From Patescibacteria group bacterium (GTDB taxonomy: Bacteria > Patescibacteriota > Minisyncoccia > UBA6257 > GWB1-50-10), in NCBI GenBank assembly GCA_030017555.1, contig JASEIC010000001.1:2571-66570 (forward strand): a stretch of DNA of 64,000 bases. The letters are read 5' to 3'. Both the position numbers and the translations under genes were made by a program. How positions within the stretch are numbered: position 1 is the stretch's first letter; every line of letters begins with the position of its first letter. The notes below the pieces were generated by a model. The model ran no database searches. It was not told the DNA's origin and worked only from the letters and a program-made list of their open reading frames with translations. This document shows positions 3,616 through 63,068 of the stretch, in pieces.

Positions 3616-3815
3616 ATAAACCTTTCCGATTTTTATTTTATAGATTAAGCTTTTACCATTATATAAAGAATCTAAGAATATGTCAAATCAAAATAAAAAA
3701 GGCGCCGATATTCATTGTATCGGTCGCCTTGAAGCCTGTCGCGGCTTTTTGTTAACATATCAAACGGCGTAACCGTTCTCAAATATTAACCCGCCGGCTT
3801 GCAACTCATCGAAAA

Positions 3816-4232: not shown

Positions 4233-4356
4233 ACATATTTCTCCTTACATGTCTTTTGAATAGAATTGAATTGTTAATTAAACTCATATAAGTATAGCAT
4301 ACTATAATGCTCATGTCAAGTTTCCAAAAAACGAGGAAAAATCTACTATATTTAAT

Positions 4357-5945: not shown

Positions 5946-6067
5946 TTGACTCCTTATTTTTTTATAGTTTTTTAATATTCTGTATTAATTATAGCATAAT
6001 GGTAATATTTGTCAATATCCTCTGTTTCCCTTTATTTTCTCACATTTTTTGACATATAATATATATA

Positions 6068-12266: not shown

Positions 12267-12439
12267 GCTAATTATTTATATTTAATTTTTGGCCTTTACC
12301 CCAAACCAAAATAAATTGGCGTATGGGGTTTTATTTAGAAATGAACCGCTCTTGAGCGGAGCGGCAATTCAGTGTTATTAGTATAGCAAATCATTTTTAA
12401 AAGTCAAATCTCTTATATACTAACACTTTTCGCCTGGTA

Positions 12440-12467
12440 TTGACAAATTATTTCAATCTGCTATAAT
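12440..12467 (+). promoter_or_regulatory. Consensus sigma70-type promoter TTGACA-N16-TATAAT, with the -10 embedded in the 18-bp palindrome ctgctataattatagcag (12458..12475)
   Basis: Exact TTGACA at 12440-12445 and TATAAT at 12462-12467, upstream of ORF 12525. The same module is duplicated at 27178-27214 on the other strand. Confidence 0.55.
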
Positions 12468-12524
12468 TATAGCAGTTTTTAAACAATTAATCCACTAACC
12501 AGCGGAAAAGAAAAGAGATTTAGA

Positions 12525-12827
12525 ATGATTAAAGAAAACAGCGACTTTATTTTAGCTTATTTTAAAGATGACCATGGCAGGATTTTAAGAGTGCGCATCC
12601 ATAAGCCTAATATGCTTATAAGTGTATCAGTTTTTAATGAAAAACCGCCGAGGAAAAAAGGTCCGCGAATTCGAGATATGGTTCATGTTTATTTCCCGAA
12701 AGCAACTTTTGAGGAAGTAAAAAAAGATCCTGGAATGGAACTTGGCACATTCGAAATTTTAGAAAAAGAAGCGAAAAAATGCTCAATTACCCGTAGGACA
12801 AAACGCGCCAGAAAATTTCCAGTATAA
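12525..12827 (+). CDS. Hypothetical 100-aa protein with its own consensus promoter and strong terminator
   Basis: ORF between the promoter above and hairpin terminator 12838..12885 (aaatccctcatcctttt...aaaaggatgagggattt + T-run). Confidence 0.45.
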   Translation: MIKENSDFILAYFKDDHGRILRVRIHKPNMLISVSVFNEKPPRKKGPRIRDMVHVYFPKATFEEVKKDPGMELGTFEILEKEAKKCSITRRTKRARKFPV

Positions 12828-12837
12828 ATTTTAATCA

Positions 12838-12885
12838 AATCCCTCATCCTTTTATACAAAAGGATGAGGGATTTATTTTTTCTTA
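12838..12885 (+). terminator. Intrinsic terminator (17-bp stem plus T-run)
   Basis: aaatccctcatcctttt atacaa aaaaggatgagggattt followed by attttttc. Confidence 0.7.
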
Positions 12886-23286: not shown

Positions 23287-23362
23287 TGGTGGGCGCGGAA
23301 GGGATCGAACCTTCGACTTCTGACTTATAAGGTCAGCGTTCTGCCACTGAACTACGCGCCCC
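23287..23362 (-). tRNA. tRNA-Ile with genomically encoded UAU anticodon; CCA encoded
   Basis: Reverse complement gggcgcgtagttcagtggcagaacgctgaccttataagtcagaagtcgaaggttcgatcccttccgcgcccacca. Anticodon stem ctgac/gtcag with loop ctTATaa. Confidence 0.8.
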
Positions 23363-23374
23363 CAAACATTCTAG

Positions 23375-25252
23375 TTATTTAATAACTATCGGTTTAAGAT
23401 TAAAACTTTTTATAATTTTGTAAAACTCTTCATGTTCTAAAGTTTCTTTTTCAATCAAGATTTTAGCAATTCTATCAAGTGTTTCTTTTCGAGTTTCAAT
23501 TATTTTCTTAGCCGTATTTAAAGCTTTATTTATAAGACTTTTTACTTCTTTATCTATTTCCGCGCCAATTTCTTCAGAATAATCCTTTTCAGTAGAAATC
23601 TCGCGGCCTAAGAAAATAAGCTCTTGGGTTTTACCAAAAGACCTTGGACCTAATTTTTCATTCATTCCGTATTGAGTAATTAATCGATGAGCTAATTCAG
23701 TCGCTTGCCGAATATCACTTGAAGAACCGGTGGTAATATCTTTAAAAATTAAAAGTTCCGCCGCGTAACCGCCAAACGAAACCGCAAGATCTGTTAAAAA
23801 TTGAGACTTGGTTCTTAACCGCCGCTCTTCAATTGGAAGTTTAATAGTATAACCGCCGGCAATACCGCGACTAACAATTGAGACTTTATGAATCGGATCG
23901 GCTTCTTTTAATGACGCCGCAACCAACGCATGGCCTGCTTCGTGATAAGCGGTAATTTCTTTTTCTTTTGGTGAAATAATTCTGCTTTTTCTAGCAGGAC
24001 CTAAAAGCACTTTTTCAATAGAAGTTAAAATATCATCTTGAGCAATGATTTTGCGATTATGCCTTGCCGCCATAATTGCGGCTTCATTCAGTAAATTAGC
24101 GAGATCAGCGCCGGCAAAACCCGGCGTTCTTACGGCGACAGTTTTTAAATCGGTATTTTTATCCAAATTTTTCCCGCGACTGTGAATTTTTAAAATTTCC
24201 TCCCGGTCATTTATATCCGGCATATCAAGAATAACTCTTCGATCAAATCGGCCGGGACGCAAAAGCGCTTGATCTAAAATATCAGCCCGATTTGTCGCAG
24301 CTACAACAATAACATTTGTATCCCGTTCAAAACCGTCCATTTCCACCAAAATTTGATTTAGGGTTTGCTCCCTTTCGTCATGCCCGCCACCCAAACCAGC
24401 GCCACGCTCACGCCCGACCGCATCAATCTCATCAATAAAAACAATGGAAGGCGCGGCCCGCTTTGCGGTTTGAAACAAATCTCTTACCCGGGATGCGCCA
24501 ACGCCAACAAACATTTCCACAAACTCTGACGCGGAAATATGGAAAAATGGAACATTTGATTCGCCAGCGACCGCTCGCGCAAGAAGAGTTTTGCCTGTAC
24601 CTGGTGGGCCCATTAAAAGCACGCCACGGGGAATTCGAGCGCCGATTTCCAAAAACTTTTTTGGATTTTTTAAAAAATCCACAACTTCTTCTAATTCTTC
24701 TTTTGATTCCCTAAGCCCGGCCACGTCTTTAAAAGTTACCTTATCGCGCGATTGAGCAAAAAGACGAAGATTAACTTTACCAAAAGAAAAAGCTTGATTA
24801 ACGCCGGTTTTTGCCTGACGGAAAATCCACCAAAAAAGAGCGACCAAAATAATAATTGGCAAAAGAGAAGGAATAAGAATGCCTAACCAATATTTAATAC
24901 CGCTTTCGTCTTCGATTTTGTAAGAAACTTTTTGGAGCGCTTTTTCGTCAACGCCATAGTTTTTCAAAGTTTCCGTAAGCGAACTTTCGGCTTCTTTCCG
25001 AGAAATAGCATTAGTGCCGTCTTGAAGCAAAACCTTAACATCAGAACCGCCAACTGTAATATTTTTTACTTCACCAGCGTTAATCTTTTCGGCAACCTGA
25101 TCTAAAGTAAGTATCTGCGCGTCCGGCGAGCTAGATTCAAAAAGAAACGAAAAAAGAAGAGTAATGGAAAAAAGGACAATAAACGCCCAAAAGAAATTTT
25201 TGCCTAAATTTTTCATCCTTAAAATATTACAGGAATTTAAAACGAAAATCAA
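23375..25252 (-). CDS. ftsH: ATP-dependent zinc metalloprotease FtsH
   Basis: Walker [17 protein letters not shown] region, and zinc motif HEAGHA. Confidence 0.95.
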
Positions 25253-25267
25253 TTTAAAATAAAAAAC

Positions 25268-25289
25268 CGCTCCGAGTCTGGACTCGGAG
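25268..25289 (-). terminator. Intrinsic terminator for the minus-strand gene 25306..25974 (gctccgagtc tg gactcggagc + T-run on the minus strand)
   Basis: Perfect 10-bp stem. The A-run on the plus strand gives a U-run on the minus strand. Confidence 0.6.
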
Positions 25290-25305
25290 CGAGATGATTA
25301 TAATT

Positions 25306-25974
25306 TTAAAATTGAAGAATTATTCCCCTGCAATACGCTTCAGCAATTCTGATTATCTTGTTTTTAATAGTAAATTCCGTATCTTTTTCATTTACAATTA
25401 ATGCGGGAATTTTATGGCCAAATTGACGCGCGTGCTCTTTTAATCCCTCGAATGAACTTTTTACCTGAATCGGTATTTCTTTTTGTTCTTCTTTGGAAAT
25501 AAATAAAATATTAAGATCAATACCATCATATCGGTCTTGATTTTTTGTGGACAGCCAAACATCCCTCACTGGTGAATTGCCAATCATATTTTTTGCTGTT
25601 GCAAAAACCATATCTTCATGCTGCCAACCTTTTTTACGAGCGTTAATTTCCCTTAAAATTGTCTCCGTCAAATCTTTAAAATCAGGAACTTCTTTTAAAA
25701 AAATTTGGCCGTGATAAGCCGATTCTCTGTGCCGCCAATCCTTTACTGGTTCAATGAATTCAATTTTTAAACGCGGTTTGTCTTTTCTTATTTTAAGAAT
25801 AAATTCAATTAGTCTTGCTTCTACTTTTCCTTCTTTGTAACCTTCAATTACATTATTGTCCCGTAAATCTTTTAAGACTTGTCGAATTAAACTTTTGCTC
25901 CAGCTAATTACTCTTGATCGCAGTTTGGTTTTTTTCATTTTCAGCACCGTCCTTTTCTTTAATTGACTGCTCAA
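25306..25974 (-). CDS. Hypothetical protein, possible PD-(D/E)xK-like nuclease fold (weak)
   Basis: 222 aa. Segment YDGIDLNILFISKEEQKEIPIQVKSS loosely resembles D...(E/Q)xK nuclease motifs. The overlap with the next gene makes the exact start uncertain. Confidence 0.4.
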   Translation of the reverse strand: MSSQLKKRTVLKMKKTKLRSRVISWSKSLIRQVLKDLRDNNVIEGYKEGKVEARLIEFILKIRKDKPRLKIEFIEPVKDWRHRESAYHGQIFLKEVPDFKDLTETILREINARKKGWQHEDMVFATAKNMIGNSPVRDVWLSTKNQDRYDGIDLNILFISKEEQKEIPIQVKSSFEGLKEHARQFGHKIPALIVNEKDTEFTIKNKIIRIAEAYCRGIILQF

Positions 25975-26215
25975 TCACGTGTTTTACGTTATCGAAATTA
26001 ATCGGGAAAAAAGAATCAAAATTAATAACAATCGGACTTTTATTATCAGCGCGAATTATTCGAGCTTTTATTTTAAAAATCTCTTTGGTTGATGACTGGA
26101 TTACTGAAAAACTTTCAATACCAAACATACCTCTTTTTTTTAAACTGCAAAGAGCTGATTTAATGGTAGAAATTCGAACGTTTAATTCATTAAAGCTAAT
26201 TAGTGGTTTTTTCAC
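25904..26215 (-). CDS. Hypothetical 103-aa protein; overlaps the downstream gene by 35-71 nt
   Basis: ORF only. No motifs. Confidence 0.35.
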   Translation of the reverse strand: MKKPLISFNELNVRISTIKSALCSLKKRGMFGIESFSVIQSSTKEIFKIKARIIRADNKSPIVINFDSFFPINFDNVKHVIEQSIKEKDGAENEKNQTAIKSN

Positions 26216-26351
26216 TCTGTTTCCTTATTTAGTTATCAAATTTAGCTAAAGTAAAACATAACACTAACTAGAAAATAATGCAAGGTGTTATAAAAATGAA
26301 AAGCCCCGCAAGATTTTTAGTTCTGGGGGCTTAAATATTACTTTAAATTAT

Positions 26352-27128
26352 TTAGACGGCTGTCGGCTGGGCAGAAATCCCTTTTCGAGTCGCATTCACC
26401 ATATCCCAATAAGCATTTTTTTCGGCTAAATCAGTGATCGCGTAGTGCGGCGGGCACTCTTCGTAAAAGCAGTTATGGCTTGCTTTAAACCATGCCTGTT
26501 CTGCGGCTAGCGTAAAATTCTTTTCTGCTATTTTACGCATAATGTGTTCGGGCGGAGAATTGCCATCAGCGATCCAAAAGAATGCTTCGTTCGTCCACTT
26601 AATAGTTGGCGTTTCTTCATGAAACTCAATCGCGGTTTTCGTAACTCGGAAGTCAACTGGCAGCTTCTTCGCAAGAAGGTAGAAACTATCGCTTTCCGGC
26701 ACAATGCTATATGCGATGATAGTCCCAAAATCGCGAAGCGCGCTCGCTTCCACGACATAAAGCACATCGTGGACAGTACGAAATCCAGCAATTGGACCGT
26801 TGGTCCACTCAACTGGCAACTTTTGACCAAGTCGGTTACAGATAATCTTCCCACAATTCGGTTCGCTAATTTCTACCGCTTGAAGTTGGAAGAAAAACTT
26901 CAAACCCTGAGGAATTTCAACTAACGGAACGATCTTATAAATCTCTTCACCCGTCTTTTCGGTAAAGTCATCTTCAAGACTACAGAGAATTTGTGTCCGA
27001 GGCACATTTTTTCCCCCTTGCCGAACAAACATCACTTGTTTATTTTTCTTGTTTAAGGCAAGTTCTCGAAATTGCCCGCGATGACCATTGATCATCGCAA
27101 AAACTTCAACGTTGTTTAATTTAGTCAT
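26352..27128 (-). CDS. Hypothetical 258-aa protein encoded by a GC-rich compositional outlier gene; monocistronic with its own consensus promoter and terminator
   Basis: Visibly higher G+C than its neighbours, with overlapping alternative-frame ORFs. SD AGGAG upstream of the ATG. Promoter at 27186-27214(-). Hairpin terminator at ~26295-26330. Confidence 0.55.
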   Translation of the reverse strand: MTKLNNVEVFAMINGHRGQFRELALNKKNKQVMFVRQGGKNVPRTQILCSLEDDFTEKTGEEIYKIVPLVEIPQGLKFFFQLQAVEISEPNCGKIICNRLGQKLPVEWTNGPIAGFRTVHDVLYVVEASALRDFGTIIAYSIVPESDSFYLLAKKLPVDFRVTKTAIEFHEETPTIKWTNEAFFWIADGNSPPEHIMRKIAEKNFTLAAEQAWFKASHNCFYEECPPHYAITDLAEKNAYWDMVNATRKGISAQPTAV

Positions 27129-27185
27129 TTTAAAATCTCCTATTAAATTGTTAAAAAATAATTATTGAATTATAAAAACTGCTAT

Positions 27186-27214
27186 AATTATAGCAGTCCT
27201 TGTTTCGTTTGTCA
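27186..27214 (-). promoter_or_regulatory. Minus-strand consensus promoter TTGACA-N17-TATAAT with the same 18-bp palindromic -10 module (27178..27195) as the promoter at 12440
   Basis: Reverse complement reads ggtattgacaaacgaaacaaggactgctataattatagcagttttta. Shares the identical blocks GGTATTGACAA and CTGCTATAATTATAGCAGTTTTTA with the 12.4 kb site. Confidence 0.55.
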
Positions 27215-27245
27215 ATACCGAATAAGCCTTTATTTTACTAAGTTT

Positions 27246-28334
27246 TTACCCTTTAAATTTCAAAATAATGCGTTTTTCCTCAGGTTTTATACCTTCAATT
27301 ACAAATTGATATTCTTTACCCTGAACAATCTGTTTTTTCATTTCTTCAACACTGCCAAATTCAGTAACGCTTAATTGTCCCTGAAGCTCATTGCCTAAAT
27401 CAATAATCGCGCCAAATGGATTAAAACTATAAACCTTTCCTTTTGCTTCTTGACCTTTTTTATAATGCTCGCCGAAAGTGAGCCACGGATCAGAAACGAG
27501 GACCTTAAGAGAAAGCGAAATTTTACCATCTTTAATTTCCGTAATTTTAACTTTTACCACATCATCAACTTTTACTATTTCTTTCGGATTTTCGATTATC
27601 CGGTGACTTAATTCCGAAATATGGATTAAGCCTTCAACCGCGGGATTATCCGTAAACCTTACAAAAACTCCAAAATCAGCAACGCTTGAAACAATACCTT
27701 CCACAATCTGACCTACTGAATAATTTTTGACTAATTCTTTTGTTGAAATTTCAGTTGCCTCTCTTTCAGAAACAATAAGTTTGTTGTTTCTGGGATTTGC
27801 TTCAATTATTTTTACGGTTAATTCCTGGCCAACCAGAAGCTCGAGAGCCTGAGAAAAACCCGTTTTATTATCAACTGCCGTTTTTGGATAATGTTCGGTT
27901 GATAATTGGGAAACCGGCAAAAACGCCTGAAGACCGCTAATAACTCCAGTAAGTCCGCCTTTGTTAAAAGCTAAAAATTTAACTTTAATTGGTTCGTCTT
28001 TTTCTTTTATTTCTTGAACTTCAGCCCAAGCTCTTTGTTTGCCGGCTTCAGAAAGAGAAAGCTCAACAAAACCTTCTTTATTATCAACGGTAATAACTTT
28101 AGCATGAACAATATCGCCGACTTTTAAATTTTTCACGGCTTCCTTGGCATTTTGAACTTCGGCTCGATAAACCGCGCCTGTGCCAAATCTACCCAAATCA
28201 ACCATAAGCATATTGGATCGATTCTCCAAAACTCGTCCTTCCACTAAATCTCCTGTTTTAAAAAGCGAAAAAAGTCCAGGCTCGAATTTAATAAGCTGGG
28301 AAATTAGCGCGTTGTTATTTTTATTACTATTCAT
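27246..28334 (-). CDS. rpsA: 30S ribosomal protein S1 (short form with four S1 domains)
   Basis: Repeated S1 OB-fold repeats (GDLVEGRVL..., GDIVHAKVI..., GQELTVKII..., GQIVEGIVS...). Confidence 0.75.
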   Translation of the reverse strand: MNSNKNNNALISQLIKFEPGLFSLFKTGDLVEGRVLENRSNMLMVDLGRFGTGAVYRAEVQNAKEAVKNLKVGDIVHAKVITVDNKEGFVELSLSEAGKQRAWAEVQEIKEKDEPIKVKFLAFNKGGLTGVISGLQAFLPVSQLSTEHYPKTAVDNKTGFSQALELLVGQELTVKIIEANPRNNKLIVSEREATEISTKELVKNYSVGQIVEGIVSSVADFGVFVRFTDNPAVEGLIHISELSHRIIENPKEIVKVDDVVKVKITEIKDGKISLSLKVLVSDPWLTFGEHYKKGQEAKGKVYSFNPFGAIIDLGNELQGQLSVTEFGSVEEMKKQIVQGKEYQFVIEGIKPEEKRIILKFKG

Positions 28335-33284: not shown

Positions 33285-33701
33285 ATGAAACCTTTTTTAG
33301 CAGCGCTTTTTATTATTCTTATTGCTTTCTCTTTTTTGCCCATAATTACTCATGGCGCAGAGGGCACGGGGATTTGGGCAAGCACCACCTGCGCTGCCAC
33401 TAGCAATACTGGCGGACCAAACAAGCCTTGTTCGTTTTGCGATGCTCTTATTGTTACAAAAAATATTATTGATTTTCTTTTTAAAGTCGCTATTCCGTTA
33501 GCGGTTGCTATTGCTGTTTATGGCGCGGTTATGATGATGCTTGCGGCGGGCTCAGAAGAAAGAGTAAGAAAATCAAAACAAATCATTACCAGAGCTTTTA
33601 TCGGGCTTGCAATCGCGCTATCGGCTTGGGTTATTATAAATACTTTTCTTCATATATTAACCGGCCAGCCAGATTTCCCGTGGGCAACCATAACGTGTTA
33701 A
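33285..33701 (+). CDS. Pilin-like small protein, paralog 1 (signal peptide plus two C-terminal hydrophobic helices split by a short charged loop; VirB2/TrbC-like topology)
   Basis: Signal peptide. ...VAIPLAVAIAVYGAVMMMLAAGSEERVRKSKQIITRAFIGLAIALSAWVI. Confidence 0.45.
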   Translation: MKPFLAALFIILIAFSFLPIITHGAEGTGIWASTTCAATSNTGGPNKPCSFCDALIVTKNIIDFLFKVAIPLAVAIAVYGAVMMMLAAGSEERVRKSKQIITRAFIGLAIALSAWVIINTFLHILTGQPDFPWATITC

Positions 33702-33716
33702 AATCAAAAAAATAAT

Positions 33717-34058
33717 ATGAAAAAAATAAACATTGCGCTTATTATATTAATTGGTTGGCTGATTAATTTGATTTCTTTTAAAAACGTTTCTGCGACAACC
33801 ACGATTGAGTTGCCAAATCCAATAAATGCCACAAGCACTATTGCGATTTTAAATTCTATTTTAGCCGTATTACAAACTTTTGCGCATCTAATTGTTGTTA
33901 TTATGGTTTTGATTGGCGCTTTTCAGATACTTTTCGCGGCCGGCGATCCGGAAAAATTCAGCAAAGGCAAAAAAACAATATTGTATTCTGTTATAGGATA
34001 TGCTATAGTATTAGTTGCTGGCGGAATAACCAGCTTCATCGCTGATTTTCTACAGTAA
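33717..34058 (+). CDS. Pilin-like small protein, paralog 2
   Basis: Same architecture: ...IVVIMVLIGAFQILFAAGDPEKFSKGKKTILYSVIGYAIVLVAGG. Confidence 0.45.
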   Translation: MKKINIALIILIGWLINLISFKNVSATTTIELPNPINATSTIAILNSILAVLQTFAHLIVVIMVLIGAFQILFAAGDPEKFSKGKKTILYSVIGYAIVLVAGGITSFIADFLQ

Positions 34059-34146
34059 TTTTGCTATAATTAAATCGGCGATCAAAAAGTCATAAAAAGG
34101 TCGAAATCTGGATTTATTTCCTAAACATGAAATTACTAAAAAAAAT

Positions 34147-34509
34147 ATGAAATCAATAATCAAATTCACGGCAATTGTCGGGATAGCAATAATTATGGCC
34201 TTACCACTTATCACCTCGGCCAGAGCAGCCGGACCATTAACACCACCTGTTACTTATGTCCCACCAATTACTAGCATCACGGAAGTAAAAGGCCTTTTAG
34301 ACCGGCTCATTAATTGGTTACAATACATATTCTTCGCTTTAACCGCTTTTTTCCTTATCGGAGCCGCATTCTTATACCTTACTGCTGCTGGCGATGAAGA
34401 TAAAGTAAAGAAAGCGAAACAAATGATTATTTACGCTGTTATTGCAATGGTGATTGCGCTTTTAGCAACAGCGGTTAACACGATTGTCATTACTTTATTA
34501 CAAAGATAG
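34147..34509 (+). CDS. Pilin-like small protein, paralog 3
   Basis: Same architecture: ...LTAFFLIGAAFLYLTAAGDEDKVKKAKQMIIYAVIAMVIALLATAV. Confidence 0.45.
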   Translation: MKSIIKFTAIVGIAIIMALPLITSARAAGPLTPPVTYVPPITSITEVKGLLDRLINWLQYIFFALTAFFLIGAAFLYLTAAGDEDKVKKAKQMIIYAVIAMVIALLATAVNTIVITLLQR

Positions 34510-40075: not shown

Positions 40076-40160
40076 GGGCAGGTGATGAAACTGGCAGACA
40101 TGCAAGGTTTAGGACCTTGTGCCGCAAGGCTTGAGGGTTCAAATCCCTCCCTGCCCACCA
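40076..40160 (+). tRNA. tRNA-Leu (anticodon UAG), class II with long variable arm; CCA encoded
   Basis: gggcaggtgatgaaactggcagacatgcaaggtttaggaccttgtgccgcaaggcttgagggttcaaatccctccctgcccacca. Anticodon loop ttTAGga. Confidence 0.85.
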
Positions 40161-40220: not shown

Positions 40221-40297
40221 GATTTTGCGCACGACCAATTTCTTCTAAGAAGGAAAATAAAGTTTTTCTGCTCGGCTCCGCGCGAGTACGCGCGGGC
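40221..40297. repeat. Left copy of a ~77-bp GC-rich inverted repeat flanking gene 40365..42755
   Basis: gattttgcgcacgaccaatttcttctaagaaggaaaataaagtttttctgctcggctccgcgcgagtacgcgcgggc. Its reverse complement matches 42919..42995 with 1 mismatch and 1 indel. Confidence 0.85.
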
Positions 40298-42918: not shown

Positions 42919-42995
42919 GCTCGCGCGTACTCGCGCGGAGCCGAGCAGAAAAACTTTATTTTCCTTCTTAGAAGAAATTGGTCGTGCGCAAATCC
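42919..42995. repeat. Right copy of the ~77-bp inverted repeat
   Basis: gctcgcgcgtactcgcgcggagccgagcagaaaaactttattttccttcttagaagaaattggtcgtgcgcaaatc is the reverse complement of 40221..40297. Confidence 0.85.
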
Positions 42996-43130: not shown

Positions 43131-44015
43131 TTATTTTCTTCTTCGGCCATGGAAAGCTTCGTGAACTTCGCGAAGTTCTTTATTGGTAATGTGCGTGTAA
43201 ATCTGAGTCGTTGAGATGTTGGCGTGCCCCAGAAGCTCCTGGACCGAGCGCAAATCCGCGCCGTTTATCAAAAGATCGGTCGCAAAACAATGTCTTAAGA
43301 GATGCGGATGAACTTTTTTAGAAATCCCGGCCTCACGAGACCTTAAATCAACTAATCGCTCAACTGCTCGAGGCGTAATTCGTCCAATAACTTCGTTGCT
43401 CTTTGTTAAACTCACAAAAAGAGCTTCTTCAATATCAGTTCGTTTATTTAAATATTTTTTAATGGTTTGTTTTGCCATATCAGCCAGAAAAACAACACGC
43501 AATTTATCGCCTTTGCCGCGGATAGATATTTCACCACGCTCCAAATCAATATTGCGATTTAACTTGCAAAGTTCAGATAACCGAAGACCCGTAGAAAACA
43601 GGATTTCTAAAATCGCGCGATCCCTCAAGCTCCGAAGATCGTTGCCGCCTGAAGCATTAAGCAAGCGTTCTAATTCTTTATAATCCAAAATTTCGATATC
43701 GCGACGCGAAACTTTTGGCAATTCAATTGTTTCGGGAGATAAAACTTCTATACCGCGTTTAATTAAATATTTTAAAAAATTTCTGATGGCAATGACATAA
43801 TAGCTTTGGGTTATTTTTTTCAGTTCTTGCCTTGAAAGGGAAACGCGAAAACTTCTTATCACTTCGGGCGTAATATCTTTTACTTTTTTAATGTTTGTTC
43901 CTTTTACGAATGCATTTAAATAACGCTCATAATTTTCCCGGGTTTTCAAAGACCGGTTTTTTTCAACTTCCAAATAATCCAGGTAGTCTTTTAAATAATT
44001 TTCTATTTCACTCAT
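43131..44015 (-). CDS. Tyrosine recombinase, XerC/XerD-like
   Basis: Catalytic R...HxxR...Y tetrad (LRDRAILEILFSTGLRLSEL; HLLRHCFATDLL; GHANISTTQIYTH). 294 aa. Confidence 0.8.
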   Translation of the reverse strand: MSEIENYLKDYLDYLEVEKNRSLKTRENYERYLNAFVKGTNIKKVKDITPEVIRSFRVSLSRQELKKITQSYYVIAIRNFLKYLIKRGIEVLSPETIELPKVSRRDIEILDYKELERLLNASGGNDLRSLRDRAILEILFSTGLRLSELCKLNRNIDLERGEISIRGKGDKLRVVFLADMAKQTIKKYLNKRTDIEEALFVSLTKSNEVIGRITPRAVERLVDLRSREAGISKKVHPHLLRHCFATDLLINGADLRSVQELLGHANISTTQIYTHITNKELREVHEAFHGRRRK

Positions 44016-49286: not shown

Positions 49287-49349
49287 AAGCTTAAAAATAA
49301 ATACTTATAAACATTGACAAGGCCTAGCGGCTCGGCTAATTTTATTCGT

Positions 49350-49691
49350 ATGATGATAAACGAAAAAGAATTGAATGAATTTGAAGAACAGTTGCGTAAA
49401 GAGGCTGAAAAAACAGAAACCCATCTTCAAAAGTTTGAACAAAATGTCGATTTCGGCAACGATGTCGACCATTTTGACGAAGAAGCTGATGAAGCGGAAG
49501 AATTTGCAAACCGCTTGGGCTTAAGGAAAGTTCTTCAAGAACGATTAAAAAGAATATACGAAGCGTTAGATCGAATTAAAAAAGGAATTTATGGCGTTTG
49601 TGAAAAATGTAATGGTGAAATATCATCAAAACTTTTAAATATAGATCCGGCGACAAATTATTGTCAGAAGTGCAAACAGCTGGTTTTATGA
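49350..49691 (+). CDS. DksA/TraR-family C4 zinc-finger protein; start trimmed to MMINEK
   Basis: Coiled-coil followed by CEKCNGEI...CQKC. Its stop overlaps the ATG of the next gene (ATGA). Confidence 0.6.
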   Translation: MMINEKELNEFEEQLRKEAEKTETHLQKFEQNVDFGNDVDHFDEEADEAEEFANRLGLRKVLQERLKRIYEALDRIKKGIYGVCEKCNGEISSKLLNIDPATNYCQKCKQLVL

Positions 49692-59823: not shown

Positions 59824-60121
59824 ATCCCTCACCCTTGAAAAACTAACTGATTATGTTTTACATTTATCTACTAAAATCAAGGCTTAATAATGGTTTTTGT
59901 GTTGGGTTTACGCCTGACTTGAAATCCAGACTGCTAAAACATAATCGGGGAGATGTTTTATCAACAAAACGTTATCTGCCTCGGGAATTAATGTACTATG
60001 AAGCGTATAAATCTAAAAAAGACGCTGTCTTGCGAGAAAAACAGCTTAAACGATTCGCCAAAAGCTTTTCGATGTTAAAACGTCGACTTAAATATTCCTT
60101 GGTTTTTCAAGGGTGAGGGAT
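59824..60121. mobile_element. Inverted-repeat-bounded GIY-YIG cassette (copy B of the tccctcaccc repeat family)
   Basis: 20-bp perfect inverted repeats atccctcacccttgaaaaac (59824-59843) and gtttttcaagggtgagggat (60102-60121) bracket ORF 59853..60116. Confidence 0.5.
59853..60116 (+). CDS. GIY-YIG nuclease-domain protein (YhbQ/UPF0213-like, 87 aa)
   Basis: FYIYLLKS...GFCVGFTPDLKSRLLKHNRG...STKRYLPRELMYYEAY...REKQLK matches GIY-YIG motifs. Its stop TGA lies inside the right repeat. Confidence 0.7.
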   Translation: MFYIYLLKSRLNNGFCVGFTPDLKSRLLKHNRGDVLSTKRYLPRELMYYEAYKSKKDAVLREKQLKRFAKSFSMLKRRLKYSLVFQG

Positions 60122-60617
60122 GAACTTCCAAGTACCGCAATTTATAGACGAACAAGCCAAAATTATCGGCTTTCTTACCTTAAAACAATTTGGTTTTATT
60201 GCCGTCGCCTTCATCACGGCGCTTATTTCTTTTCATTACTTTACTTTTTCTCTTGCTCTTATTATTACCGTAATTGTTGGCGCCTTAGCCATTGCTTTGG
60301 CATTTGGCAAAGTAAACAGCCAACCGTTGCCAAAAGTGATTTTAGCTGGTTTGGGATATTTGTGGAGTCCCAGAACTTATACATGGCAGCGCGCAATGAA
60401 AGAAACCGATCTTGATATTTCCGCTTTAGAAAAATTGGAGACGACAAGAAGAAATATGAGCATTCAAGAAAAAATAAAATCCATCGCCTTATCAATTACC
60501 ACCAGTAAATTCTTGTCGCCAAAACAAATGCGAGAAAATAATGAAAAGAAAAAATACCAAGTGGTTAGTTTTTCAACTGGAGAACGCAAATTTGCCAAAC
60601 GGGTTGACTATAAATAA
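60120..60617 (+). CDS. VirB3/PrgI-like two-TM protein (putative)
   Basis: Two adjacent TM helices (FGFIAVAFITALISFHYFTFSLALIITVIVGALAIALAF), placed upstream of the VirB4-like ATPase. ATG at 60120 lies inside the repeat. Confidence 0.4.
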   Translation: MNFQVPQFIDEQAKIIGFLTLKQFGFIAVAFITALISFHYFTFSLALIITVIVGALAIALAFGKVNSQPLPKVILAGLGYLWSPRTYTWQRAMKETDLDISALEKLETTRRNMSIQEKIKSIALSITTSKFLSPKQMRENNEKKKYQVVSFSTGERKFAKRVDYK

Positions 60618-60666
60618 TAACACAAAAAATATTTAGTTCGACTATAATAAATTTAATCACACTTTC

Positions 60667-61314
60667 ATGGAACCGGCATTGCCAACTCAAAAATTCGTTG
60701 ATATAAAAAACGTCAAAGACGGCGCGGTTTATCTCAAAAATAACGGCTTACGAAAAATACTGATTGTGAGCGGCGTAAATTTTGATTTAAAATCCGAAGC
60801 CGAACAATCTTTAATCTTAAATACCTTTCAAAACATGTTAAACTCTCTGGACTTTTCAATTCAATTCTTTGTTCATTCCCGCAAAATCAACGTCGACGAA
60901 TACCTCGCAAATATGAGCACGAAAAAAGAAAAAGAACCGAACGAACTTCTCAAAATTCAAATCGAGGAATATGTCGAATTTATTCGTTCGTTTGTTCAAG
61001 AAAATTCTATTATTTCTAAAGCTTTTTTTGCTATCGTTCCTTATGACCCCCAACCGATTACTTCTCAAACACGAGGTTTTTTGAACACTTTTAAAACACT
61101 TGTTAAAAAACCAAGCACAAATAAAGTAGAAGAAGAAAATACTCAAAAAAATCTGGAACAGCTTGACCACCGAGTAAATCAAGTTATTGACGGCTTAGAA
61201 CAAATTGGACTCCGGGCAGTTCCTCTTGAAGATGATGAAATTACCGAACTTTTCTATAATCTTTATAATCCTCAACTTGTTGAAAAAAAAGGTTTAAATA
61301 TCGCAGAAAAATGA
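60667..61314 (+). CDS. Hypothetical protein; possibly the detached N-terminal domain of VirB4
   Basis: 215 aa. 4-nt ATGA overlap with the downstream 585-aa VirB4-like ORF. The combined length of ~800 aa equals a canonical VirB4. Confidence 0.35.
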   Translation: MEPALPTQKFVDIKNVKDGAVYLKNNGLRKILIVSGVNFDLKSEAEQSLILNTFQNMLNSLDFSIQFFVHSRKINVDEYLANMSTKKEKEPNELLKIQIEEYVEFIRSFVQENSIISKAFFAIVPYDPQPITSQTRGFLNTFKTLVKKPSTNKVEEENTQKNLEQLDHRVNQVIDGLEQIGLRAVPLEDDEITELFYNLYNPQLVEKKGLNIAEK

Positions 61315-63068
61315 CAAAAATTAAAATTCCACAACCTTATAAACCGAGCTCTGAAGACGTAGCAAATATTATTGCTCCGGCCGGTCTTGAAGCAAGTCCA
61401 AATTACATGAAATTGGGGGACTATTTTGTTAAAACTCTTTTTATTTTCACTTACCCGAGATATATTTCAAGCGGTTGGTTTTCTCCAATAATTAATCTCG
61501 CGGAAATGATGGATATTTCTATTTTTGTCCACCCAATGGATACGGCTTTAGCGCTTAGAAATTTAAGGAAAAAAGTCGCTCAAATTCAAGCTGAAGCAAG
61601 CGAAAGAGAAGAAAAGGGCCTTGTCCGCGATCCGATTTTAGAAACCGCTCACCAAGACATTGAAAATCTCCGCGACGCTCTCCAGCAAGCCCGGGAAAAA
61701 CTTTATAGGATCGGGGTTTACATAACAATTTACGGCAAAGGCTTGGAAGAATTAAATAAATTGGAAAATAAAATAGAAAACATGCTTGAAGCGAAACTTG
61801 TTTATATAAAACCCGCGCTCTTCCGACAACTTGAAGGTTTTGCCTCAACCCTGCCTCTTTGCCAAGATAAATTATTGATTCATACGGCTTTAAATTCCGG
61901 CCCTTCTTCTTCGCTTTTTCCTTTTGTTTCACCGGACTTAACCTCGGATAAAGGCATCCTTTACGGCGTTAATATGCACAATGCCAGTCTTATAATTTTT
62001 GACCGATTTTCTCTTGAAAACGCCAACACTGTTGTCTTTGCTAAATCCGGCGCGGGCAAATCTTATGCCACTAAACTTCAAATCCTTCGTTCTCTTATGA
62101 TCGGGACAAACGTCATTGTTATTGATCCGGAAAATGAATATCAAAACTTAGCTAACGCGATTGGCGGCAGTTATTTTAAAATTTCTCTAACCTCGCCAAA
62201 CCATGTTAATCCTTTCGACATTCCAATCAGTCCGGAGGGCGAGAAACCGGCTGATGTTTTTAAATCTCATGTTTTGAACTTAACCGGACTAGTAAAATTA
62301 ATGCTCGGCTCTATTACGCCCGAAGAAGACAGCCTTTTAGATCGGGCTATTACTGAAACTTATGCTTCTCGCGATATTACCGCTGAAACATTCGGCGCCA
62401 TAAAAGAATTAAATCCGCCCCTCTTAGAAGATCTGCAGGTTGTTCTTAAAAACACTGAAGGCGGCGCTGGCATTGCTCAACGGCTTGAGAAATTCACTCG
62501 CGGTTCTTACGCTGGTTTTACAAACGCGCCCACCAACGTTGATATAAAAAACCGGTTCATTGTTTTTTCAATAAGAGATTTGGAAGAAGAATTAAGACCC
62601 GTGGCAATGTACATAGTCTTAAATTTTGTCTGGAACTTGGTTCGGTCAGAATTAAAACAACGGCTTATGATTATTGATGAAGCTTGGTGGATGATGAAAT
62701 ACAAAGATTCGGCGGCTTTTCTTTTTGGCCTCGTGAAACGCGCCCGCAAATACTATTTGGGCATTACCACCATCACTCAAGACGTTGAAGATTTCTTGAA
62801 ATCCGATTATGGCCGGCCGATTGTCACTAATTCCTCAATCCAATTTTTGATGAAACAATCAACAACCTCCATTGGTTCGGTTGCTCAAGCTTTTGATCTT
62901 ACCGAGAGCGAAAAAACTTTTTTAGTCGAAGCCGGCGTCGGCGAAGGATTATTTTTTGCCGGCTTAAAACACGTCGCCATAAAAATTATCGCCTCCTTTA
63001 CCGAAGATCAAATTATTACCACCAATCCCGAACAAATGATTGAACTTAAAGGGCTAACTAAAAAATAA
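61311..63068 (+). CDS. VirB4/TrbE/CagE-family type IV secretion ATPase (C-terminal ATPase part)
   Basis: Walker A VVFAKSGAGKSYATKL. NPFD motif. Walker B LMIIDEAWW. RKYYLGITTITQ conserved C-terminal block. Confidence 0.7.
   Translation: MTKIKIPQPYKPSSEDVANIIAPAGLEASPNYMKLGDYFVKTLFIFTYPRYISSGWFSPIINLAEMMDISIFVHPMDTALALRNLRKKVAQIQAEASEREEKGLVRDPILETAHQDIENLRDALQQAREKLYRIGVYITIYGKGLEELNKLENKIENMLEAKLVYIKPALFRQLEGFASTLPLCQDKLLIHTALNSGPSSSLFPFVSPDLTSDKGILYGVNMHNASLIIFDRFSLENANTVVFAKSGAGKSYATKLQILRSLMIGTNVIVIDPENEYQNLANAIGGSYFKISLTSPNHVNPFDIPISPEGEKPADVFKSHVLNLTGLVKLMLGSITPEEDSLLDRAITETYASRDITAETFGAIKELNPPLLEDLQVVLKNTEGGAGIAQRLEKFTRGSYAGFTNAPTNVDIKNRFIVFSIRDLEEELRPVAMYIVLNFVWNLVRSELKQRLMIIDEAWWMMKYKDSAAFLFGLVKRARKYYLGITTITQDVEDFLKSDYGRPIVTNSSIQFLMKQSTTSIGSVAQAFDLTESEKTFLVEAGVGEGLFFAGLKHVAIKIIASFTEDQIITTNPEQMIELKGLTKK

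Follow-up and report, generated by a model that had tools for sequence, protein, structure and literature searches.

Why should two unrelated orphan genes on opposite strands of one bacterial genome be preceded by the same promoter, built around a perfect 18-bp palindrome? The question is raised by a 64,000-nt stretch of DNA from a Patescibacteria group bacterium (assembly GCA_030017555.1, contig JASEIC010000001.1, positions 2,571 to 66,570), which was analysed as a whole and is called the window. The shared promoter element, called the module, lies upstream of a 100-aa open reading frame (ORF) at site 1 and of a 258-aa gene, gene X, at site 2. To our knowledge, almost nothing is known experimentally about promoters and regulators in the Patescibacteria or Candidate Phyla Radiation (CPR), and most of their accessory genes are orphans. 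The new result is that the module of site 2 is, as judged from sequence, conserved together with gene X in three other species.

The shared promoter module

Both sites share the block GGTATTGACAA, a spacer of 11 or 12 nt and then the block CTGCTATAATTATAGCAGTTTTTA, at 12436-12481 on the forward strand and at 27219-27173 on the reverse strand (Table 1). Direct reading confirmed the site coordinates, the common -35 and -10 hexamers, the spacings of 16 and 17 nt and the 18-bp palindrome followed by TTTTTA, as described in an earlier note on this DNA. That note had also taken the module for an identical 35-nt unit. Blocks of 11 and 24 nt are indeed identical, and a repeat search of the window found 100% identity between the two sites for the 24-nt block of palindrome plus TTTTTA. 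The spacers and flanks, however, do not align, so that the shared sequence consists of two blocks and not of a contiguous 35-mer.

The 18-mer occurred twice in the window, even when up to three mismatches were allowed, against an expectation of 0.01 copies, and none of 100 shuffled windows contained two or more. Because the 18-mer is palindromic, the perfect extended -10 element TGCTATAAT is present on both strands at each site. No Rfam family was found on the module, either at the gathering threshold over the whole window or at a relaxed E-value around both sites.

Both sites scored 12 of 12 for the sigma-70 hexamers and carry the TGn extension in addition, and they are the sole such sites between 9.5 and 29.4 kb of the window. 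The -35 and -10 hexamers are 16 nt apart at site 1 and 17 nt apart at site 2 and its three orthologs (L016, L141 and L045, described below), and TTGACA is exact in all five copies. A Shine-Dalgarno (SD) sequence and an ATG follow 50-52 nt downstream at each window site. Read in this way, both sites are predicted near-perfect sigma-70-type extended -10 promoters (TTGACA, 16 or 17 nt, TGcTATAAT). The promoters of rpsA and nusA, the housekeeping genes checked in the window, are weaker.

Three further window promoters, at 4319, 6015 and 14538 (all on the reverse strand), share the layout GGTA/GATA-TTGACA ... TGC-TATAaT-TAwA-nn-AG and precede small orphan ORFs. Two degenerate relatives of the module are listed in Table 1; the one at 4291..4319 has six mismatches to a 23-nt core of palindrome and T-run, while the one at 5969..6017 was detected by the repeat search as 49 nt with 71% identity to site 1. 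From this common extended layout and the weaker rpsA and nusA promoters, the module appears to be the perfect member of a small promoter family specific to the orphan genes of this genome. All perfect or near-perfect consensus promoters of the window, at 3686(-), 4319(-), 6015(-), 12440(+), 14538(-) and 27215(-), precede a small hypothetical gene, of 61, 138, 63, 100, 180 or 258 aa.

Conservation and rarity of the module

The exact 18-mer was searched for in one genome per species, in a collection that does not include the source metagenome-assembled genome (MAG), and was found at 48 loci, with at most one per genome. Orthologs of the site 2 module were recovered in three species, all with the order S1, X, small gene, 222-aa gene, FtsH. 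In the Patescibacteria MAG L016, S1 is followed by GGTATTGACAA-N12-palindrome (1623-1640)-TTTTTT, a 313-aa X protein, homologs of the 103-aa and 222-aa genes and FtsH. In the Jorgensenbacteria MAG L045 (46% GC), the corresponding sequence is cTTGACAg-N12-palindrome (1786-1803)-TTTTTT, followed by a 338-aa X protein and the two downstream homologs. The third species, L141, was reached through look-ups of X-family proteins and has the same synteny, with GGATTGACAA-N12-CTGCTATAATcATAGCAG-TTTTTT and the palindrome at 2934-2951. L016 and L045 have the exact 23-nt core, and L141 carries one substitution in it (T11 to C, at the palindrome centre, with the forward -10 intact). At least five Ts follow the palindrome in all five copies. 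Both window copies read T5A and the three relatives T6, a hint that the 24-nt block was homogenised or copied inside this genome.

The conservation of the core was compared with the divergence of the adjoining S1 gene. The S1 protein of the window is 86% identical to that of L016 and 67% identical to that of L045, and identity at four-fold degenerate sites is 60% and 40%, respectively, where base composition alone predicts about 29%. If each site had a 40% chance of identity, all of 23 neutral positions would be kept with a probability of about 7e-10, and the 15 positions not read by sigma with a probability of about 1e-6 (0.4^15). The spacer, the 5' untranslated region (UTR) and the X protein have diverged across the module-bearing species, while the core has been kept. 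Since the core is retained where the S1 four-fold sites are near saturation, the positions that sigma does not read appear to be under strong purifying selection. This agrees with the view of the earlier note that the conservation exceeds what sigma recognition needs, and the retention of the site 2 module before the X orthologs of three species answers its question about relatives. The more distant X genes (L142-L145) have near-consensus TTGACA/TATAAT promoters without palindrome and without T-run, so that the module belongs to one subclade.

The palindrome is rare even in related genomes. In 863 kb of related Patescibacteria loci around SHMT orthologs, the 18-mer had no match in a promoter context even with three mismatches allowed, and in the later-fetched loci L049-L145 the L141 ortholog was the sole promoter-context match to the 23-nt core at up to five mismatches. 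The species-representative assemblies of L016 and L045 contain one exact copy of the 18-mer each. In 59 strong generic promoters from the related loci no conservation was seen 3' of the -10 except for an A-rich start position, and other promoter-like sites in L016, L141 and L045/L132 (Jorgensenbacteria MAG) have different discriminators. With two copies in 64 kb, the palindrome does not stand before dozens of genes. A generic promoter context of the lineage was ruled out by the rarity in the window and in the 863 kb together with the unconserved generic promoters.

In other Patescibacteria the exact 18-mer with a perfect -35 at 16 or 17 nt recurs without a T-run, in L010/L019, L029/L040 and L034. 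These copies precede lineage-specific genes, namely a 211-aa orphan, a 92-aa orphan and a gene of the XRE-type helix-turn-helix (HTH) class, respectively. Perfect extended -10 promoters number at most five per Mb of the sampled DNA. Patescibacteria account for 8 of the 48 exact 18-mer matches, whereas their share of the scanned collection is roughly estimated at only a few percent of bases. On this rough share, and with the position frequencies of the 59 generic promoters, at most about 0.3 T-run-less recurrences would be expected by chance in the phylum, against four independent contexts observed. A metagenome scan for the palindrome followed by TTTT gave zero matches.

Two ways in which one promoter could come to precede two genes were considered. 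Paralogous genes carrying the promoter along were ruled out, as BLASTP showed no relationship between the 100-aa and 258-aa proteins (E=2.5). A phage or mobile origin found no support: the eight exact 18-mer matches in IMG/VR were without -35 or T-run, and no mobile-element genes lie beside either site. Nijveen, Matus-Garcia and van Passel have reportedly described 'putative mobile promoters', that is, identical regulatory DNA upstream of non-homologous genes. The module resembles these in its identical blocks before two unrelated genes on opposite strands and in the shared T5A variant. It differs in that the identity is split into 11 and 24 nt around unrelated spacers, with no flanking repeats or mobile genes, and in that site 2 is ancient, syntenic and vertically conserved. 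The mobile promoter module suggested in the earlier note therefore survives in a weak form only, since copying in one piece is contradicted by the unrelated, unequal spacers.

Possible functions of the palindrome

The leading explanation, which is held tentatively, is that the palindrome is an operator for a symmetric (dimeric) repressor covering the -10 and +1 region. A symmetric dimeric DNA-binding protein would bind the palindrome, cover the -10 and the start site and so silence two promoters whose unrepressed activity would be maximal. The result would be a small on/off regulon of the X operon and the 100-aa gene, in which the degenerate relatives at 4319, 6015 and 14538 may be weaker members. 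Transcription would start at an A in the right arm, and the mRNA would begin AGUUUUU and not include the hairpin. The T-run would be a second, asymmetric signal, which at site 2 would make the palindrome a weak terminator hairpin for read-through from rpsA.

As in known operators, an inverted repeat overlaps the core promoter, and it is conserved beyond the sigma contacts in four species. The sole core substitution, in L141, lies at the centre of the palindrome, and dimeric binders usually make no base contacts there. Also in favour of an operator, the exact 18-mer with its -35 recurs in Patescibacteria lineages without the T-run. Perfect-consensus promoters are typically under repressor control. 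Site 1 has nothing upstream to terminate, so a terminator by itself cannot explain the identical right arm there. The perfect palindrome, the central change and the lack of covariation fit either a dimeric protein or a hairpin whose left arm is frozen by sigma.

Known operators offer partial parallels. Like the LexA SOS boxes and CIRCE/HrcA, the module is an inverted repeat on the core promoter, identical at more than one transcription unit and conserved across distant relatives far beyond the needs of sigma. In contrast to these, its half-site is itself the extended -10 consensus, its targets are lineage-specific orphan genes, the conserved unit includes an asymmetric T-run, and no cognate regulator was found. 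The E. coli-type LexA SOS box is CTGT-N8-ACAG (PMC8565304); it was rejected as a match, as the module reads CTGC-N10-GCAG and its targets are not DNA-repair genes. The study of LexA in Patescibacteria by Sanchez-Osuna et al. (2017) is grouped, in a passage of a paper citing it, with reports of direct-repeat LexA motifs. NrdR boxes are 16 bp long with conserved C4, A6, A8, T9, T11 and G13 and stand in pairs, spaced by 15-16 bp, before ribonucleotide reductase (RNR) genes (PMC13584703). They were rejected as well, because the C/G partners of the module are 11 nt apart instead of 9, T9 and the critical G13 are mismatched even in the best register, and the module is a single palindrome with no second half-site within 300 nt and with downstream genes that are not RNR genes.

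Several observations weigh against an operator. The T-run is conserved in all five copies yet asymmetric, and a symmetric operator does not explain it; the U-tract of a terminator, or a U-run early in the transcript, would do so. The left arm is mostly dictated by sigma (TG, TATAAT), and the part TA..CAG of the right arm matches the preference of the other strong promoters in the window. All seven stem pairs are invariant, so that covariation of the hairpin cannot separate protein binding from hairpin formation. No auxiliary half-sites were found within 300 nt of any module copy. As the 18-mer is unique in the L016 and L045 assemblies, a regulon is visible only in the genome of the window. The earlier note had proposed to look for a co-occurring HTH regulator; no sequence-specific one was found in the 64-kb window apart from a RodZ-like HTH_25 protein, which is also present in relatives without the module. 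Since only 64 kb of the genome is visible, this absence is weak evidence. The repressor proposal of that note is plausible, but it comes without a cognate regulator in the window and leaves the T-run unexplained.

Two neighbours of gene X were considered as regulators and gave no convincing sign of DNA binding, which counts on the same side. The match of the 103-aa family to the Lrp/AsnC HTH profile was weak (E=7e-4 overall, about 1 per domain). The AF2 model of the 103-aa protein (single-sequence, pLDDT 80, pTM 0.70) has the fold order alpha-beta-beta-beta-alpha and no significant Foldseek match (best E=8e-3, TM <0.5). For the 222-aa protein, the Pfam hints were below threshold (DUF7343, DUF4365) and the model was unusable (pLDDT 35). 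Elsewhere in the window, a 125-aa protein at 49314-49691 (+) matched the DksA/TraR C4 zinc finger with E=7.7e-4, below the Pfam cut-off. If this match is real, the protein would be an RNA-polymerase-binding factor that tunes promoters via discriminator or initial-NTP properties.

A broader proposal is that the palindrome is a cis-regulatory site used throughout the Patescibacteria, for a conserved DNA-binding factor or a special property of the CPR RNA polymerase, gating maximal-strength promoters of lineage-specific orphan genes that are probably highly expressed. It is hinted at by at least four independent -35-bearing contexts, in Parcubacteria-type and Saccharibacteria genomes, and by the 8 of 48 matches, and is considered distinctly unlikely. 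If true, it would provide the first conserved regulatory motif for a large uncultured group and a first handle on the control of accessory, possibly host-interaction, genes in the CPR; if false, the element would still stand as a promoter core under unusual constraint that is well documented. In either case a short, exactly defined and strongly selected element marks a handful of orphan genes as putatively co-controlled and probably strongly expressed. A 23-nt probe and a clear series of point mutants can be derived from it to ask about a repressor, about fusion of terminator and promoter in compact genomes and about UTP sensing. The explanations considered, by operator, terminator, optimised promoter, UTP and bidirectional promoter, are not mutually exclusive.

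Next to the operator, the explanation that survives best is that the intrinsic terminator of rpsA and the promoter of X are fused at site 2 and that site 1 is a secondary copy of the 24-nt block; this is possible but doubtful. The right arm would be fixed by pairing with the sigma-fixed left arm, and X transcripts would start inside the right arm and escape termination. The signature of an intrinsic terminator, a hairpin with five or more Ts (Us in the RNA) directly after it, is found in all five copies. At site 2 and its orthologs it lies just after the highly expressed rpsA, whose same-strand end is 25-75 nt upstream in four of four species, with S1 directly upstream of the module in each (window, L016, L141 and L045), and read-through from rpsA at site 2 would meet this hairpin and U-run. 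It is the sole terminator-like structure after S1 in the window, L016 and L045, while relatives without X and the module have a canonical G+C-rich terminator at this position and then a separate ordinary promoter. Purine-rich bases before the palindrome lengthen the stem to 11-12 bp (-12.6 kcal/mol in the window, -15 kcal/mol in L016), the single substitution in L141 falls in the loop, and the T5A of both window copies hints at copying within the genome.

The terminator, however, leaves several facts aside. No same-strand gene lies upstream of site 1, where there is nothing to terminate. The core stem is short and AT-rich, with 7-8 bp and three G-C pairs, and holds a full -10; its folding energy varies with the flanks between -8 and -15 kcal/mol, whereas the clear terminators of this genome have 9-17 bp and -15 to -25 kcal/mol. 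In L141 the module is retained even though a separate hairpin follows S1, and promoters of other Patescibacteria contain the palindrome but no T-run. It would also be mechanistically awkward to copy just the 24-nt block, given the unrelated spacers of 11 and 12 nt.

An optimised promoter without any extra factor is fairly unlikely to account for the module. In this explanation the -35, TGn, -10, AT-rich discriminator, C-A-G start and U-rich initial transcript would be selected together for high expression, and the palindrome would be a by-product of promoter symmetry (TG with the CA start; TATAAT with the AT-rich discriminator). RNA polymerase generally prefers a pyrimidine at -1, a purine at +1 and G at +2, in line with such a start. 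The strong window promoters at 4319, 6015, 14538 and 18837 share TGC-TATAAT-TAwA-nn-AG, and all X-family genes, even the distant ones without the palindrome, have near-consensus promoters. Promoter symmetry as such is documented (Warman et al.). Optimisation does not readily explain why 13 bases 3' of the -10 are exact at near-saturated divergence, which goes beyond the usual demands of discriminator and initial transcript. Nor do the other promoter-like sites of the L045 genome have this layout; generic Patescibacteria promoters show no such preference, and the housekeeping genes rpsA and nusA of the window use weaker promoters.

UTP-sensitive initiation would explain the T-run and is judged improbable. 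With the predicted start A-G-U-U-U-U-U, high UTP would cause slippage on the T-run and low UTP would give productive transcripts, tying both genes to pyrimidine supply in a salvage-dependent organism; this could be combined with the other models. Reiterative initiation takes place at homopolymeric runs of at least 3 nt in the start region, and T/A tracts of this kind are found at upp, codBA and pyrBI of E. coli (PMC8812562). As at these promoters, the T-run of the module is 3' of a strong -10 and one or two bases past alternative purine starts, and in all five copies at least five Ts occupy predicted positions +3 to +7. The position of the T-run nevertheless rests on the predicted start, and slippage is here only predicted. 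Unlike upp, codBA and pyrBI, the genes downstream of the module show no recognisable connection with pyrimidine metabolism. The palindrome has no counterpart there and is left unexplained, and the other palindrome-bearing Patescibacteria promoters are without the T-run.

That the module is a symmetric bidirectional promoter, firing in reverse towards nusA at site 1 and antisense to the 3' end of rpsA at site 2, is very improbable. The element TGCTATAAT is present on both strands, and extended -10 promoters can work without a -35. Bidirectional promoters of this type have overlapping -10 elements on the two strands, owing to the symmetry of TATAAT; the commonest spacing of their divergent starts is 18 bp, and horizontally acquired or young genes are enriched for them (bioRxiv 10.1101/2020.01.31.928960; NAR 2026, PMC12825309). 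Promoters built on -10 symmetry are common (Warman et al.), and the module shares the overlapping opposite-strand -10 elements. In all five copies, however, only one side has a -35. With a 2-bp overlap of the hexamers, the divergent starts would lie about 15 bp apart, not 18 bp and outside the preferred classes of 18/29/23/12/10/7 bp. A conserved promoter and leader already serve nusA, the reverse direction has no gene at site 2 or its orthologs, and in L141 the substitution impairs the reverse -10 alone, changing it to TATGAT. The full 18-bp perfection and the conserved T-run also go beyond what simple symmetry requires. In two Eubacterium loci (L003, 4567-4584; L015, 1053-1070), the same 18-mer is flanked on either side by TTGACA at a distance of exactly 17 nt. 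There it stands between divergent genes for an HAD-type hydrolase and a DeoR-like regulator, according to a by-eye reading of the translations, and appears to be a textbook symmetric bidirectional promoter.

A chance resemblance of two strong promoters, conceivable in an AT-rich genome for a module that is largely consensus promoter sequence, has a negligible probability and is refuted by the shuffles and the 0.01 copies expected, the exact 24-nt block, the exact-match scan, the S1 four-fold-site divergence and the core kept in three other species including the L141 ortholog.

Genomic context of the two sites

The window is part of a low-GC (37.6%) chromosome and encodes NusA, FtsK, RecA, SHMT, FtsH, S1, GyrA, LeuRS and PNPase. 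The features discussed are collected in Table 1.

Table 1. Coordinates of the module, its degenerate relatives and the neighbouring genes in the window
Feature	Position	Strand	Remarks
Site 1, -35 block GGTATTGACAA	12436-12446	+	TTGACA exact, hexamer 12440-12445
Site 1, spacer attatttcaat	12447-12457	+	11 nt
Site 1, palindrome CTGCTATAATTATAGCAG	12458-12475		18 bp, perfect; TATAAT at 12462-12467
Site 1, extended -10 TGCTATAAT	12459-12467	+	mirror copy on - strand
Site 1, T-run TTTTTA	12476-12481	+	adjoins palindrome; predicted mRNA +3 to +8
Site 1, predicted start	A at 12474	+	usual 7-nt distance past -10
Site 2, -35 block GGTATTGACAA	27219-27209	-	hexamer 27215-27210
Site 2, spacer acgaaacaagga	27208-27197	-	12 nt
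Site 2, palindrome CTGCTATAATTATAGCAG	27196-27179		same 18-mer; TATAAT at 27192-27187 on - strand
Site 2, T-run TTTTTA	27178-27173	-	TTTTTT in L016, L141, L045
Site 2, predicted start	A at 27180	-	usual 7-nt distance past -10
Degenerate relative, TTGACA, 17 nt, (A)TGCTATACTTATATGAGTTTAA	4291..4319	-	precedes 138-aa orphan
Degenerate relative, GATATTGACAA, 11-nt spacer, ATGCTATAATTAATACAG	5969..6017	-	precedes two small membrane-protein ORFs
100-aa orphan ORF (QMD65_00085)	12525..12827	+	downstream of site 1; ATG 12525; basic C-terminus
Strong intrinsic terminator closing the 100-aa unit	12837..12874	+	-25.1 kcal/mol, z = -7.9; 17-bp stem then ATTTTTT
222-aa ORF	25306..25974	-	just upstream of ftsH; likely start 25938 = 210 aa; third gene of probable operon
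103-aa gene	25904..26215	-	3' of X; probably same operon
Gene X, 258 aa (QMD65_00175)	26352..27128	-	ATG 27128; tiny fast-evolving family
rpsA (ribosomal protein S1)	27246..28334	-	same strand as site 2; ends 49 nt upstream of palindrome

Syntenic relatives (L129, L131, L133, L134/L135 and L139) were recovered via SHMT homologs and share the order GyrA - Lactamase_B_3 - S1 - FtsH ... SHMT - FolD - RecA - FtsK ... UPF0102 - NusA. Gene X and the 100-aa gene were found in none of them. The gap between S1 and FtsH (within 23375-28334 in the window) is empty in L129, holds a homolog of the 103-aa gene alone in L131, L133, L135, L139 and L134 and a homolog of the 222-aa gene alone in L058, and contains all three genes in the window, L016, L141 and L045. 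The genes of this slot measure 81-103 aa and 210-234 aa across the relatives. By this comparison gene X and the 100-aa gene appear to occupy variable slots in a conserved gene backbone.

Gene X probably heads a three-gene operon with the 103-aa and 222-aa genes, as judged from their arrangement. Orthologs of the 103-aa gene follow X in L016, L045 and L141, and the 222-aa protein has homologs in L016 (61%), L045 (34%) and L058 (26%). Both genes downstream of the module had been described in the earlier note as unrelated orphans. They are unrelated and without a Pfam family, but an exhaustive HMMER search of 1.84 billion proteins placed the X protein in a family of nine cluster representatives, and gene X is thus an orphan in a loose sense only. 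It is 49% identical to P0123 (L141), 31% to the 313-aa protein of L016 and 26% to the 338-aa protein of L045 (E=3e-16), and the latter two are 40% identical to each other. With GC 0.44 and GC3 0.44, against GC3 of 0.25-0.38 in its neighbours, gene X lies at the 94th percentile of 777-nt windows, so that the remark that it is a GC outlier roughly holds. The X family (P0123-P0130) has a conserved Cys/His motif, HNC(F/Y)..C(C).PHY, and most members have Lys/Arg-rich low-complexity tails.

In the relatives L131 (3700-3790), L133, L135 and L139, which are without X, the small gene after S1 has a conserved promoter of its own, cTTGCAwTATTT..TTTTATTATAataaCAGCTGTTTAACTG. In L133 and L135 a 12-bp palindrome, TTATTATAATAA, spans the -10, with CAGCTG at the predicted start; the -10 is symmetric there too, with a different geometry.

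At site 1, no gene on the same strand lies upstream of the module, and the divergent nusA has a separate promoter at 12407. The 100-aa protein matched only itself among 5.8 billion sequences, and it gave no tblastn match in any fetched locus. In L129, L131, L133 and L134, which share the synteny, the interval from UPF0102 to NusA is without this gene. The nusA leader contains a hairpin, CCGCTC..GAGCGG, at 12345-12365 (-), whose sequence is kept in the distant syntenic loci L129 (about 18700), L131 (about 19340), L133 and L134; it may be an autoregulatory or attenuator element.

Three further observations were made in the window. Downstream of ftsH, a tRNA-Ile with anticodon UAU (23287-23361, -) adjoins tRNA-Val(UAC). 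A UAU tRNA-Ile is unusual for bacteria, in which AUA is normally decoded by a lysidine-modified CAU tRNA. Inverted repeats of 74 nt with 99% complementarity (40224-40297 and 42919-42992) flank a 2.6-kb segment with a 796-aa gene that encodes M28 peptidase and spermine-synthase-like domains. A tRNA-Leu lies outside on the left and a tyrosine recombinase of the phage-integrase family outside on the right (40076-40160 and 43131-44015, respectively), and on this arrangement the segment may be invertible or an integrated element. Three tandem T4SS-pilin genes (33285-34509) and a separate cluster of PrgI-, TraC- and TraG-like (P-loop) genes (60120-63068) look like parts of a type-IV-secretion or conjugation-like apparatus.

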